NCBI GenBank assembly: GCA_965234725.1 | Contig: CBDDUX010000005.1 | Span: forward strand, 1 to 20,026 | DNA length: 20,026 bases | Direction of reading: 5' to 3' | Origin: Thermoplasmatota archaeon | GTDB taxonomy: Archaea; Thermoplasmatota; Penumbrarchaeia; Penumbrarchaeales; Penumbrarchaeaceae | Shown: positions 206 to 5,386 of the stretch, piece after piece | How positions within the stretch are numbered: the stretch's first letter is position 1 | How the letters are laid out: each line of letters begins with the position of its first letter | Made by a program: the position numbers and the translations under genes | The notes under the pieces: generated by a model | Seen by the model: the letters and a program-made list of their open reading frames with translations, nothing else | Database searches by the model: none | Told to the model about the DNA's origin: nothing

Positions 206-2212
206 TCAGGACCTGGTCCTTAGATAGAGGAAGACCGCAGCACCAGCTAACCCGATAATACCCAGAACGACCCAGGTTATCGAGATTCCATCGATACCCC
301 CACTCCCATCGGAACTCGATCCAACCACATTGACATCGATGAAGGAATAAAGGGACGATCCCTGGGATCCAATGGTCCTAACCATTATCCTGTGCGTCCC
401 CTTACCAATGTCTATCTTGGTGGACCATGGGTTGAATGGCCCGGTTGTTTGTTCATCCATGAGGGTCCATTCACCCTCATCGACTCTGTATTCGATCCTT
501 TCGAAATCACCTTTCTTTGCCCATCCCAATCCAGACATTTCAATTGGTGAAGTGACGTTATAATAATCGAATGGTACGATATCTCCAATCTCGGATATGT
601 TGTTGATATGGGCTTGAAGGTCAACGGAGAAATCTTCCGGCGAGGTCACGGTTTGTGCCAGCCTTACTGCATTGAAAGCATCGACCACTCCATAACCGAA
701 TTGAGGTTCCCAAAAAGGATCCAGTTCTGGATAGAAGGCTGGATTTTTCTTTTCAGCGGTATATTTCAGGATCTCCTTGACAATGTTATTCTCTCCCTCG
801 AGCTCCGGATTTGCCTCAAGGATAAGTGCAACTACCCCTGCCACAAGAGGAGTGGCATATGAAGTTCCTGACCCTCTATTACCATACCCGTTGGATGAGG
901 CATCTCCCCTGATCCTCGCGGTGTCGGGTTGTAAATTTACGATATTTGTTCCCGGAGCAGAAACATCAGGTTTCAGCTCATTGTAAGGGTCATTATCACC
1001 ATTGTCGGTCCTTGGACCCACAGAAGAATAGAAAGCGATCACATCATCCTCATGTTCCAGAGTGTTCTGGTCATCTGTCGCACCAATGATGATCGCATCG
1101 GATGATGCGGACAGTCCATTGAAACCAGTGTTGTCTGGTCCATCATTTCCAGCGGCGTTGACCACGATCACACCATGCTCCACTGCGGCATCTAATAGTC
1201 TTGAATATTGATCGGTACCATCCGAGTCCGATCCGATATCCACTCCCCATGAGATCGAGAAGATATCAATACCCCTGTATTCATCTCCGCCGTTTATCCA
1301 TTGGGAATCGCTCATCTCCGTAGCCCACCTTATCCCTCTCAGGGTTCCATCCTTAATATGAGGATCAGAGACCGCACCCACCCAGAACTCTCCAGGTGCA
1401 TATCCTATCTGAGTCCCAATCCTTACATCGACCAACCTGGTATCAGGTGCTGTTCCCTGGTATTCACCCTCACTTCCTCCAGTACCAGTTGCAATGCCGG
1501 CACAAGTGGACCCATGGCCCTGGATGTCATCTGGATTGAATGAGCCATCCTGGGGGTAGAGGAATGGAAGATTGTCAGGTTTCGTCATATCCACACCTCC
1601 AAGGAACTTTCCACTCAGAGAGGGGTGTTCATCATCTATTCCAGTATCTATGACTGCCAGGGATACTCCTTTTCCAGTGAATCCTATCTCCCAGGCTGTA
1701 TTGGGAGAATACATATCCGATTGTTTAGCCCTGACAGTGGGTGTGGCTATGTCAGAAAATAGGATTGGTACTCCCAATGGTTCAATGAAGACCACACCAT
1801 CCATCTGACCGATCTCGTACAATCTATGGGATGGTACACTGCTTAATACAACCGCATCGATAAGATCAATTACGGCAGAAACAACGTAACCTCTCGACCC
1901 AAACTCTGTGAGTGTCTTATCAGAGATATCATCTGAAAAGGATACCGTGATCTCCAGGAGGATCTGGTCTTCCGGAGAAAGCTCAGCATATCGATCGATG
2001 ACATCAGAGATCCCGTTCCTATTTTGATCCAGAGAGGTCCTTTCCCACCATGGTAGTTCTGAGATCGGTCCTTCATTATTTCCTAAGGGTGACCAATGGT
2101 TCATTTTTGCCATTATCTGTGGTTTTTCGGTCTCGGCGGATAGGTCCATTGCACCTGCAACGGAGGTAAACAGCAATACTGCGGTCAGAATTATGATGGA
2201 TGTCTTCATCAT
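206..2212 (-). CDS. Secreted, C-terminally membrane-anchored S8 (subtilisin-like) serine peptidase
   Basis: N-terminal signal peptide and prodomain. Catalytic motifs VIDTG, HGSTCAG and SGTSYATP, plus oxyanion AAGNDG. Beta-rich C-terminal domain, then a Gly/Ser linker, TM helix and basic tail. GGAGG RBS upstream. Confidence 0.93.
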   Translation of the reverse strand: MMKTSIIILTAVLLFTSVAGAMDLSAETEKPQIMAKMNHWSPLGNNEGPISELPWWERTSLDQNRNGISDVIDRYAELSPEDQILLEITVSFSDDISDKTLTEFGSRGYVVSAVIDLIDAVVLSSVPSHRLYEIGQMDGVVFIEPLGVPILFSDIATPTVRAKQSDMYSPNTAWEIGFTGKGVSLAVIDTGIDDEHPSLSGKFLGGVDMTKPDNLPFLYPQDGSFNPDDIQGHGSTCAGIATGTGGSEGEYQGTAPDTRLVDVRIGTQIGYAPGEFWVGAVSDPHIKDGTLRGIRWATEMSDSQWINGGDEYRGIDIFSISWGVDIGSDSDGTDQYSRLLDAAVEHGVIVVNAAGNDGPDNTGFNGLSASSDAIIIGATDDQNTLEHEDDVIAFYSSVGPRTDNGDNDPYNELKPDVSAPGTNIVNLQPDTARIRGDASSNGYGNRGSGTSYATPLVAGVVALILEANPELEGENNIVKEILKYTAEKKNPAFYPELDPFWEPQFGYGVVDAFNAVRLAQTVTSPEDFSVDLQAHINNISEIGDIVPFDYYNVTSPIEMSGLGWAKKGDFERIEYRVDEGEWTLMDEQTTGPFNPWSTKIDIGKGTHRIMVRTIGSQGSSLYSFIDVNVVGSSSDGSGGIDGISITWVVLGIIGLAGAAVFLYLRTRS

Positions 2213-2303
2213 GGTTATATGGCCTCCTCTTAACTAAATATTGTTCCATTTTCGGTTATATGGTCATTTGAAAAAACAGATATAGATTATGGAAGAATAA
2301 ACC

Positions 2304-2394
2304 AAAAGAAGGAGAAAGACGGGGGGGAAGTGGGGGATTAGAGAGGAGAGAGAGGTGTGAGAGAATATACAATGGTTATATTCCCCCTCGTCTT
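2304..2394 (-). ncRNA. Candidate ~90-nt stem-closed small RNA with CU-rich loop
   Basis: 14-bp inverted repeat 2316-2329/2381-2394 (one mismatch) encloses a 51-nt loop that is largely polypurine on + and polypyrimidine on -. TATATATA at 2416-2423 lies about 25 nt upstream on -, and a U-run follows the stem. Confidence 0.3.
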
Positions 2395-2557
2395 ATTATA
2401 TATATATGTCTGCTGTATATATATGGTTAGACCCTAATTGTGTACAAATCTGATAATAATATTAACTATCAGTATATATTGGATTAAATAGATCATTAAT
2501 ATAAATTTAAGAAAAACACATCCCAGATGATTAAAGGCCAGACATACGAAAAATATT

Positions 2558-3007
2558 GAAGTGCTCCCGACGGAACCTTTGCCTTAAGAAGATGATCAAC
2601 GATGATCCTAAGGCAAAGGTCAGCTGAAAAACGGTTTCTATTAGAATATAATCATTTTTCAGCGTGTAAGATCGGTTATAGTAATGGTTTTCGGATTATT
2701 ATGTGATAGACGCAAGAAAATCATTACGGGAAAGGTGGCACTTCTTGTGATCTGGATAGAAGAGTATTTGAAAGAAGTGCTCCCGACGGAACCTTTTCAT
2801 CTGGGAAAGAACCTTCGAGAATTCAGATGAAAAGGTCAGCTGAAAAACGGTTTCTATTAGAATATAATCATTTTTCAGCGTGTAAGATCGGTTATAGTAA
2901 TGGTTTTCGGATTATTATGTGATAGACGCAAGAAAATCATTACGGGAATGGGGGCACTTCTTGTGATCTGGATAGAAGAGTATTAGAAAGAAGTGCTCCC
3001 GACGGAA
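2558..3007. repeat. tRNA-Glu 3'-end-anchored tandem array, period 216 bp, four palindromic cassettes per unit
   Basis: GAAGTGCTCCCGACGGAA occurs at 2558, 2774 and 2990. The two full units are identical except for 3 substitutions and a hypervariable 34-nt window inside the first palindrome. Confidence 0.95.
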
Positions 3008-3066
3008 TTTGAATCCGTGTCGCTGGCTCGAGAGGCCAGCATGATTGGCCGCTACACTACGGGAGC
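2994..3066 (-). tRNA. tRNA-Glu (CTC)
   Basis: Minus strand reads GCTCCCG-TA-GTGTAGCGGCCAATCAT-G-CTGGC CTCTCGA GCCAG-CGAC-ACGGA TTCAAAT TCCGT-CGGGAGC-A. Full cloverleaf; CCA not encoded. TATA-like TTATAAAG at about 3105-3112 on -. Confidence 0.96.
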
Positions 3067-3130
3067 ATTCCTTGGTCTGAGCAGCACCCGAGTATGAACA
3101 AATCCTTTATAATTGTTTCTTAGAACGGAC

Positions 3131-4810
3131 CTATTGCTTCATCTGGTTCTGGATCTTTGCCCAGCTATCCCTTAATGTTGCAGTTCTATTGATGACAAGC
3201 ATCTCATTCGTAGTATCCAGATCAATGGTGAAATATCCGGTCCTCTCGAACTGGAACCTTGTTCCGATCGCAAGGTCCTTCACAGCAGGTTCTACCTTGC
3301 AGTTCTTCAAGACCTTTATGGATTCCGGGTCAATATATGACCTCCAATCTCCCTCGGAGAGGGGGTCCTCAATAGTGAAAAGCTTGTCATAGAGTCTGAT
3401 CTCGGCATTGATCGAACTATTTGCTGAAACCCAGTGCAAAGTTCCCTTGATCCTTCTTCCATCGGGGGCGGACCCTCCTTTTGATTCCGGATCGATCCTG
3501 CAAACGAGTTCCCTGATCTCATCCCCTTCCTTGATCACATCCACACAAGTTGCAAGATAAGCATTTCTCAGCCTGATCTCACTTCCGGGTGACATTCTGA
3601 AGAATTTCTTGGGGGGATCCTCCATGAAATCATCCCGCTCGATGAACAGGGTTTTTGTGAATGGGACCCTTCGAGTTCCAGCTTCAGGTTTTTCAGGATT
3701 GTTGACCAGCTCCATTTCCTCGATCCTGTTCTCATCGTAGTTCTCGATGGTAACCTTAAGGGGGTCCAAAACTCCCATGAACCTATTTGCCGTTTTGTTC
3801 AGATATTCCCTTACGCAATGTTCGAGAAGCTCAAAGGCAATGTTGGAATTCACTTTGGCTATCCCGACCCTGGAACAGAAGTCCCTGATGGCTTCCGGTG
3901 GATAACCTCTTCTTCTCATTCCGGATAGAGTTGGCATCCTGGGATCGTCCCAACTTTTGACGAGTTTCTCCTCCACCAGTTCAAGGAGCTTTCTTTTTGA
4001 CATGACGGTATAAGTCATATTCAGCCTTGCGAATTCTATCTGCTGAGGATGATATACATCATCTAACTGGTCGATGAACCAATCATACAAAGGTCTGTGA
4101 TTCTCGAATTCCAGGGTGCAAAGTGAATGAGTGATCCTCTCGATAGAATCCTCCAACCCATGGGCCCAGTCGTACATGGGGTAAATACACCATCGGTCCC
4201 CTGTGTTGTGGTGGCTCTTGTGAAGGATCCTGTACATGACCGGGTCCCTCATGTTCATATTCGGATGTGACATGTCGGCTTTTGCCCTGAGGACCTTTTC
4301 CCCATCCGGAAATTCTCCAGCCTTCATCCTCTTGAAAAGATCGATGTTCTCTTCAATGGGCCTGTCCCTGAAGGGGCTGTTCTTTCCAGGTTTTGTTAAG
4401 GTTCCTCTGGTGGCACTTATCTCCTCTGCGGTTTGCTCATCCACATAGGCTTTTCCTTTCTCAACGAGTTCCATTGCCCAATCGTAAAGCTGGTCGAAAT
4501 AATCCGATGCAAAGAAAAGTCTATCTTCCCAATCGAATCCAAGCCATTTCACATCCTCTATGATGGACCTGACATACTCATCCTCTTCCTTCGCAGGATT
4601 CGTATCATCGAATCTCAGGTTGCATTTTCCCCCGTATTCTTCAGCAATACCGAAATTCAAACAGATCGATTTTGCATGTCCGATATGGAGATATCCATTG
4701 GGTTCGGGTGGGAACCTCGTATGCACCCTGCTTTCAAACTTTCCGTTGAGGTTGTGCTCGTCGATGATCTCCCTGATGAAATCCCTGCCTGATCGTTTTT
4801 CTTCTTCCAT
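3131..4810 (-). CDS. glnS: Glutaminyl-tRNA synthetase, bacterial type
   Basis: [22 protein letters not shown] (HIGH), MSKRK (KMSKS equivalent), [14 protein letters not shown] (Cys where GluRS has Arg), QIEFARL and C-terminal beta-barrel FQFER. ATG 4810 follows an AGGTG RBS; the ORF track starts at GTG 4819. Confidence 0.95.
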
Positions 4811-4880: not shown

Positions 4881-5331
4881 AAATCGCAAGTAATCAGGAA
4901 CAAAATTTTGATATGCCTATGCATCAAAGATGCCCACGTGGTTCTCAGTTCTCATCTGGAGTGATTATAAGACAATAATAATCGGGACTACTTTTTTAGA
5001 TTAATTATTGATTATAAAAAAAGTAGCCCCGACCAGATTCTTGAGTTTTCCAAATTAATGATACAATGATCAGCAAAACTCAACCATCGCCACAATCGAA
5101 GATTGTGTCTGGTTCTCATCTGGAATAATTAGAATAAAATTACAATCGGGACTACTTTTTTGGATTAATTATTGATTATGAAAAAAGTAGCCCCGACCAG
5201 ATTCGAACCATCGCCAAAATCAGAGATTTTGTCTGCGTGTGCATCAAAGATGCGCACGTGGTTCCCAGTCCGAATCTGGCCAGGGATATCCATATTTTGA
5301 AGAAAAGAATTGGTAGCCCCGACCAGATTCG
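4881..5331. repeat. tRNA-Gln 3'-end-anchored modular repeat array with nested palindromes
   Basis: GTAGCCCCGACCAGATTC occurs at 5023, 5187 and 5313. There is a 93-bp duplication 4948-5040/5112-5204 and a module 4920-4949/5240-5269. Each tRNA-end copy has an inverted partner 18-19 nt away. The left boundary is degenerate and approximate. Confidence 0.9.
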
Positions 5332-5386
5332 AACTGGTGGCGGAAGATCCAGAGTCTCCCATGCTAGACCGCTACACTACGGGGCT
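5311..5386 (-). tRNA. tRNA-Gln (CTG)
   Basis: Minus strand reads AGCCCCG-TA-GTGTAGCGGTCTAGCAT-G-GGAGA CTCTGGA TCTTC-CGCC-ACCAG TTCGAAT CTGGT-CGGGGCT-ACCA. A1:U72 pair typical of archaeal tRNA-Gln; CCA encoded. Confidence 0.96.

Follow-up and report, generated by a model that had tools for sequence, protein, structure and literature searches.

Two tandem units behind a tRNA gene in this archaeal genome are close to identical except for one hairpin, in which much of the sequence has changed and the pairing has been kept. What kind of element has such a build, and is the variable hairpin a dedicated, exchangeable part of it? The window analysed here is a stretch of 20,026 nucleotides from a Thermoplasmatota archaeon whose genome assembly (G000) consists of 3.54 Mb in 114 contigs, with 45% G+C, and is 97.65% complete. 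A first-pass annotation of the sequence proposed that the hairpin, H1, is a hypervariable cassette, resembling a spacer, a guide or a recombination-specificity module, set in a constant scaffold.

The repeat has a period of 216 nt and occupies positions 2558-2773 and 2774-2989 of the + strand, downstream of a tRNA-Glu(CTC) gene, toward lower coordinates. The two units differ at 22 positions. Nineteen of these are within H1, which is 46 nt long in both copies (2575-2620 and 2791-2836), and the other three are at 2733, 2736 and 2769, so that the first description of a near-identical unit around two divergent hairpins was correct. The arms of H1 measure 15 nt (93% complementary) and 13 nt (100%), and folding as DNA gave -13.0 and -10.5 kcal/mol with z values of -7.8 and -3.7. 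The outer 6 bp are constant, and the reported swaps, G-C to T-A, C-G to A-T, T-A to C-G and A-T to T-A, can be read directly off the sequence. As was also claimed, the hairpin starts where tRNA identity ends. On the + strand the 18 nt preceding each H1 are the 3' end of tRNA-Glu(CTC) plus 4 trailer bases, a sequence present three times when the tRNA gene itself is counted. An origin by reverse transcription of the mature tRNA was rejected for the window, since the copies of the tRNA end carry the genomic trailer, not CCA.

All parts of the array are read on the minus strand. It is anchored by the tRNA-Glu(CTC) gene at 2993..3066 (ARAGORN; 60.4 bits with the Rfam tRNA model), the last 15 nt of which, 2993-3007, are the first copy of a 15-nt block. 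The tRNA-adjacent unit, unit B, extends over 2777..2992 and scores 153 bits with R1, a covariance model built from an alignment of 12 such units in this genome. It consists of hairpin S (2950..3000, with a 25-nt loop), whose 5' arm is formed by the tRNA block's end and the trailer and whose 3' arm is an inverted copy of it, followed by hairpin A (2897..2943; a 12-bp stem with one A.C mismatch and a 23-nt loop), hairpin B (2839..2879, with a conserved A5/T5 stem) and H1, which is hairpin C (2791..2836; a 13-bp stem and a 20-nt loop). The second block copy, 2777..2791, corresponds to tRNA positions 60-74 and closes the unit. The distal unit, unit A (2561..2776, 158 bits with R1), repeats this order. 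Its hairpin S (2734..2784) has the same build and stands on the second block copy, and hairpin A (2681..2727), hairpin B (2623..2663) and H1 follow (2575..2620; a stem of 12+2 bp, with the family motif in the loop). The third and last block copy, 2561..2575, leads into host flank, without a hairpin S. The predicted fold of a whole unit contains the four hairpins S, A, B and C, at -60.8 kcal/mol and a z value of -4.9.

Contigs of the probable source run contain two versions of 2648-2732 at equal depth (~2400 each). The first is the window sequence and the second has three substitutions and one insertion. The window units may therefore differ at about seven positions outside H1, not three, which suggests that assembly made them more alike than they really are. 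Comparison of contigs showed the H1 of unit A unchanged in a related population. In one contig, from run X2, 2676 is joined directly to 2892; the path then holds a single unit, with the H1 of unit A, and since a 111-nt identical repeat is spanned, this may be an assembly path rather than a true allele; copy-number polymorphism within the population cannot be proved from contigs. Between the array and the start of a subtilase gene (206-2212, minus) there is a purine-rich tract with G runs, AG repeats and (TA)n runs (2300-2435), which has two inverted repeats, 2316-2329 with 2381-2394 and 2390-2406 with 2416-2432.

The units belong to a family, F1. An nhmmer profile of the units found 13 copies in G000, and 12 of them align into one architecture which, on the tRNA-sense strand, runs from hairpin A (about 12 bp with a 23-nt loop) through a linker, hairpin B with its conserved A5/T5 stem and hairpin C to a tRNA 3' part. 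By this alignment and its predicted fold, H1 is hairpin C of a non-coding element of three or four hairpins and 165-216 nt. RNAalifold predicted 35 pairs from the MAFFT alignment of the 12 copies and 29 of them show compensatory changes. R1, built from the same alignment, has matches in all 23 other genomes of the window's family, which represent seven genera (5-27 matches per genome). Of 37 genomes that lie farther away in the phylum, 6 have matches. Among 71 distinct F1 sequences every one of the 35 pairs has changed on both sides, and 94.9% of the cells at paired positions are paired; shuffling lowers this figure to 63.2%, and sliding the partners lowers it to 42-52%. The 71-sequence alignment leans to structure because it was fitted to the model; the MAFFT alignment is free of that bias.

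Hairpin C taken alone has both-side changes in 12 of 12 pairs, with 94.8% of cells paired, in the 71 distinct sequences, so the covariation of H1 that the first-pass annotation had expected in homologues is found. Its sequence is not wholly free. A conserved motif lies at the base and in the loop of H1, and the same short motif is found again in the loop of hairpin A, so that the loop motif is present in direct orientation in both end hairpins. Free variation in hairpin C is confined to the middle of the stem.

Scans with an F1 pattern gave 13 stretches in genome contigs, four of them true F1 from MAG records with names beginning Thermoplasmat, and 17 in metagenome contigs, three of them true F1 by the model. 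The named carriers are uncultured Thermoplasmatales and Thermoplasmatota MAGs. The IMG/VR scan returned no exact match to the pattern, and no excised or free form of F1 was seen.

The position of F1 is highly specific. In G000 it follows tRNA-Leu(GAG), Ser(GGA), Gly(CCC), Glu(TTC), Arg(GCG) and other tRNA genes, and each unit terminates in the 3' end of its own tRNA. In the relatives a tRNA gene is immediately upstream and in the same orientation at 19 of the 27 loci with an F1 match. Altogether at least a dozen tRNA species are occupied, and the core matches each of them. Thirteen arrays with three or more copies were used to define this core. The sequence common to all copies of an array is exactly 15 nt in seven arrays and 16-18 nt in five; the remaining array, interrupted by N, has 14 nt. 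The block begins at the last base of the T loop (position 60), continues through the 3' strands of the T stem and the acceptor stem and the discriminator, and ends one base beyond it (position 74). These limits are the same whatever the tRNA or the unit family. F1 insertions are thus bracketed by a direct repeat of tRNA positions 60-74, typically 15 bp, and, as at attachment sites, the tRNA gene and the distal end of the insert share an identical core.

The hairpins are built onto this block from both sides. Hairpin C abuts its left edge, the first base of the block being the end of the hairpin. The right part of the block forms the 5' arm of hairpin S, or of hairpin A in the shorter form of F1. 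A perfect hairpin of at least 7 bp starts inside the block in 28 of the 42 copies that precede a unit, mostly with a loop of 23-25 nt, and in 7 of the 23 terminal copies. The 3' arm of hairpin S lies inside the element and matches tRNA-specific bases, over as many as 11 nt wholly within the block. Most units thus carry an inverted copy of part of their own target.

F1 shares its arrays with unrelated small unit families, F2, F4 and F5 (126-200 nt), and these have the same 15-nt junction. A second array in the window, on the minus strand at 5024-5386, lies behind tRNA-Gln(CTG) (5311-5386) and has two more copies of the 3' block at spacings of 126 and 164 nt. Its units are F2-like and F5, and the second incorporates the block in a T6/A6 hairpin. 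About 20 of 32 tRNA genes tested in G000 have one or more extra exact copies of a 13-nt segment of the tRNA 3' end elsewhere in the assembly; tRNA counts in this genome are lower bounds, since ARAGORN with the intron option missed at least tRNA-Leu(CAG). Larger segments also occur between blocks. At L010 (G000:C28, 4500-15500) and L005 (G000:C38, 72500-78500), gene-sized segments of 1.5-3.7 kb lie between tRNA-Ala blocks, each with one or two genes, in a layout that resembles a cassette array. The genes encode a lectin/papain-like secreted protein, an FG-GAP repeat protein, a methyltransferase and a 751-aa protein, the last accompanied by an 83-aa ORF similar to a casposase C-terminal domain.

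Comparison of the same site between genomes showed both occupied and empty states. At tRNA-Glu(CTC), beside the GluRS gene, four genomes of one genus have no unit (G001, G003), one unit (G004) or two (G000). Other genera have F2 plus F1 at this tRNA, or alternating pairs. In G010 the flank past the last block copy matches the empty-site flank of G001. Unit B of the window is orthologous to the single unit of G004, and between these two H1 is identical at 45 of 46 positions and hairpin B at 32 of 41. Between orthologs, then, H1 is not the hypervariable part that it had been taken for.

The exchange of parts is not restricted to H1 either. In the tRNA-Ala array of G004 one unit matches its neighbour in hairpin A (46/47), linker (17/18) and hairpin B (38/41), and its hairpin C matches a different unit (44/47). 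A mosaic in G016 (L018) is identical in A (47/47) and diverged in B (28/41) and C (19/47). The reverse is found on contig C38 of G000 (L005), where C is conserved (46/47) and A is not (31/47). Hairpins A, B and C are therefore exchanged independently, and H1 is one shuffled module among others, not a dedicated cassette. The constant scaffold with an exchangeable part holds to the extent that F1 is modular and tied to the junction; a uniquely hypervariable H1 does not. The identical body and different H1 of the window units are read here, from these comparisons, as module shuffling, or as gene conversion that stopped at the diverged hairpin. Gene conversion between older, diverged copies had been named as the competing explanation, and it fits the data at least as well as exchange of a cassette. 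As was argued at the outset, the pattern is more than simple drift after duplication. H1 keeps its structure where its sequence is free, it sits exactly at the junction, and modules pass from copy to copy.

The interior of the unit (linker, hairpin B and hairpin C) was used to measure similarity. It averaged 0.551 for pairs from different tRNAs of one genome and 0.498 for pairs that share the tRNA but come from different genomes. When the closest unit was sought in the other genomes, the tRNA type agreed in 26 of 57 cases, where 6.1 would be expected, with related genomes counting as non-independent samples. The likeness within genomes together with the match of tRNA type across genomes points to long residence combined with exchange within the genome.

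Weighing these features, we consider it rather probable that the F1 units are non-autonomous insertion elements whose placement at tRNA 3' ends depends on an enzyme acting in trans. F1 would be unable to move alone, and a recombinase encoded elsewhere would insert it at the 3' ends of tRNA genes, with the 15-bp block as either the crossover or the duplicated target. The hairpins would be recognition structures, in which the stems need only pair and the loops carry the common motif. They probably act in DNA, possibly as a folded single strand, and in such a strand the tRNA target would be restored in duplex form by hairpin S. The covariation of the hairpins and the presence of an inverted target copy would both be accounted for if the recombinase worked on folded single-stranded DNA. 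The H1 difference in the window would then have arisen when hairpin modules of diverged F1 members recombined, the remainder of the unit having been homogenised or recently copied. The candidate enzymes are a tyrosine recombinase or the casposase homologue of G000. Some points count against mobility. In a tblastn search with the seven G000 recombinases, no recombinase gene was found within ~1.5 kb of the F1 loci examined in relatives, and the tie to an enzyme is indirect. A free circle of 165-216 bp is physically awkward. Units that keep to the same tRNA types in different genera could also be long-established residents with a function for the host.

Elements mobilised by tyrosine integrases target tRNA genes, and their non-autonomous derivatives include cis-mobilisable elements. 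Like F1, they show a direct repetition of the tRNA's 3' part, beginning at the T loop, and they accumulate in tandem at one tRNA. Recombinases of this type are also encoded in G000; there are seven, all under the curated cut-offs of the named families, and one of them adjoins a block copy, starting 57 nt from the tRNA-Lys block on C68 in the manner of a classical integrated element. An integrase beside its attachment site is thus found for a different insert, at tRNA-Lys, and not at the F1 loci examined. F1 further differs from the integrase elements in that a single family is spread over at least a dozen tRNA species, in having the size of a bare attachment site and in having hairpins that covary. 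Two 320-aa XerA-like tyrosine recombinases with the same gene layout, L098 (G000:C102) and L099 (G000:C44), are each encoded ~1 kb downstream of a tRNA-Thr gene. Elsewhere in the genome a reverse transcriptase gene with a 469-aa frame is located at G000:C47, 14930-15550.

The attC sites of integrons and the attP of CTX phage offer a second comparison. Their hairpins likewise vary in sequence, keep structure and mark cassette boundaries, and a stem that rebuilds the target duplex and tandem arrays are also features of F1. F1 differs in its archaeal host and its tRNA gene target; no G000 recombinase reaches the integron-integrase cut-offs (best scores at most 54.7 bits, cut-offs at least 265). 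A further bold reading would be an archaeal system of the integron or CTX-phage kind, in which folded single-strand hairpins rebuild the tRNA target for an Xer-like recombinase of the host. MITEs and REP/BIME-type repeats are, like F1, small, non-coding, multi-copy and hairpin-rich, with the enzyme acting in trans. F1 is set apart from them by its strict location at one tRNA position, its 15-bp repeat and its direct ends, and no match to the Y1 transposase (PF01797) was found in G000.

The other candidate enzyme leads to a more specific proposal, in which the casposase (Cas1-solo) itself builds the arrays: it would recognise the T arm, cut the next 15 bp with a stagger and duplicate them, and insert F1, F2 and other short non-coding modules successively, in a spacer-like manner. 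This is possible but on balance unlikely. The Cas1-solo of G000, 407 aa long, can be aligned from end to end with 6OPM (E 1.3e-117), which PMC6977970 identifies as the structure of the Methanosarcina mazei casposase. Its gene is ~200 nt beyond the 3' end of tRNA-Leu(CAG). In the tRNA-Ala block array the 83-aa ORF has 49% identity over 79 aa to the C-terminal domain of Cas1-solo. The uniformity of the 15-nt block across tRNAs and unit families is also as expected, and the published behaviour of casposases at tRNA 3' ends is strikingly similar. As described in PMC6977970 and PMC4779613, casposases make uniform duplications of 14-15 bp and favour tRNA genes, at their 3' end, as targets. They depend on tRNA sequence lying upstream, can use single-stranded ends, and leave tandem insertions that share one duplication. 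The casposons of M. mazei and Aciduliprofundum boonei resemble F1 arrays in target, in duplication length and in the sharing of one site copy between tandem insertions.

Several observations speak against this proposal. F1, at 165-216 bp, is devoid of genes, with neither a casposase nor PolB, and terminal inverted repeats are absent from its left and right ends. Its inverted copy of the target would be left unexplained by a pure target duplication. According to the same papers, the M. mazei duplication consists of the last 4 bp of the tRNA and 10 bp downstream, and so does not start at position 60 as the F1 repeat (60-74) does. Casposases or their remnants were found in 5 of the 23 other genomes of the family, F1 in all 23. 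No PolB gene lies beside the G000 Cas1-solo gene, and no tRNA was found in the examined flanks of three other casposase loci. The casposase gene of G012 has no terminal inverted repeats or duplications around it. The G000 Cas1-solo gene itself (L106, G000:C59, 6-1229) stands at the start of its contig, and both it and the 315-aa ORF that follows it (together 6-2456) lie close past the 3' end of tRNA-Leu(CAG). If the casposase were the enzyme, the arrays would be informative about the route by which Cas1 went from transposition to the building of ordered arrays.

Leaving the enzyme aside, F1 could be a tRNA-linked sequence that serves the host, either as a structured RNA transcribed from a promoter in the loop of hairpin A or as a two-way terminator or insulator, with the tandems arising by local duplication. 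Such a role fits the occurrence of F1 in each of the 23 family genomes, its place at the same tRNA types in different genera, and the strong structural covariation. The hairpin A loop has the conserved motif followed by an A/T-rich, TATA-like stretch. Runs of T5-T6 are found on both strands in hairpins A, B and S, the A5/T5 stem of hairpin B placing a T5 run where it can be read from either strand, and a single T.G pair, as read on the tRNA-sense strand, has been kept in 40 sequences. T5 runs inside an element should end archaeal transcription early, which counts against a structured RNA. When that conserved T.G column is left out, 2205 helix cells contain 24 G.T and 55 A.C on the tRNA-sense strand. 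The wobble enrichment usual for structured RNAs is seen on neither strand, although a count of mismatch types is weak evidence. A role of F1 in DNA rather than RNA is for now favoured from this pattern, and loosely held.

Nor did known RNA families account for the units. In a scan of 2200-3200 against Rfam 15, with E up to 10, only tRNA passed its gathering score. Matches to C/D-box snoRNA and microRNA families were far below their thresholds, and C/D boxes, a kink-turn, a hammerhead core, a tRNA-like cloverleaf, split-tRNA halves and a bulge-helix-bulge, sought by eye, did not fit across F1 members. The empty tRNA-Glu(CTC) of two genomes of the same genus, the 15-nt junction common to unrelated unit families and the gene-sized segments bounded by the same block also argue against a host role. 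Taken together, we regard it as improbable.

The boldest use of the casposase homologue would make the arrays a natural "proto-CRISPR", in which Cas1-solo takes the conserved T arm of whichever tRNA gene as leader, duplicates the 15-bp repeat and inserts short non-coding modules serially. In F1 arrays, as in CRISPR arrays, a short repeat alternates with inserts beside a fixed upstream sequence. However, CRISPR repeats are 24-48 nt and their unique spacers ~30-40 nt, whereas the repeat here is 15 nt and part of a tRNA, and the inserts, at 126-216 nt, fall into a few families instead of being unique. The chance that this is correct appears small; if it were, the arrays would show, in a living organism, a stage between the integration of transposons and the acquisition of spacers. 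The genome also has a CRISPR-Cas locus of GSU0053/GSU0054 type (L105, G000:C106) with a Cas4-Cas1 fusion and Cas3, and with tRNA-Ser block copies.

Finally, the first proposal, in which a constant scaffold holds H1 as a cassette that can be swapped to set specificity (as a guide, as a spacer or for recombination), is very improbable: the strong difference in the window is confined to H1, and one G004 unit joins the body of one neighbour to the H1 of another, but exchange affects hairpins A and B as well, H1 is conserved at 45/46 between orthologous units of two genomes, the H1 of unit A is identical in a related population, and the variable 34-mers gave no significant match to the host genome by blastn-short (best 16 nt, E 0.023) and no exact match in IMG/VR, so that nothing supports a spacer or guide role.

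The non-autonomous insertion element thus remains the preferred reading of F1. No description of such elements was found in a limited collection of publications, searched in their main texts. The units have a practical consequence, since many contigs, among them C102, C103, C4, C68 and C69, end at or within tRNA genes or block arrays: repeats of the F1 type break assemblies at tRNA genes and create false tRNA fragments. They also provide a natural system for asking how an integrase reads a tRNA gene. If F1 is mobile, it would add to the archaeal insertion sequences a class that is very abundant and has not been described before, one that targets a single exact position in many tRNA genes and builds arrays there.
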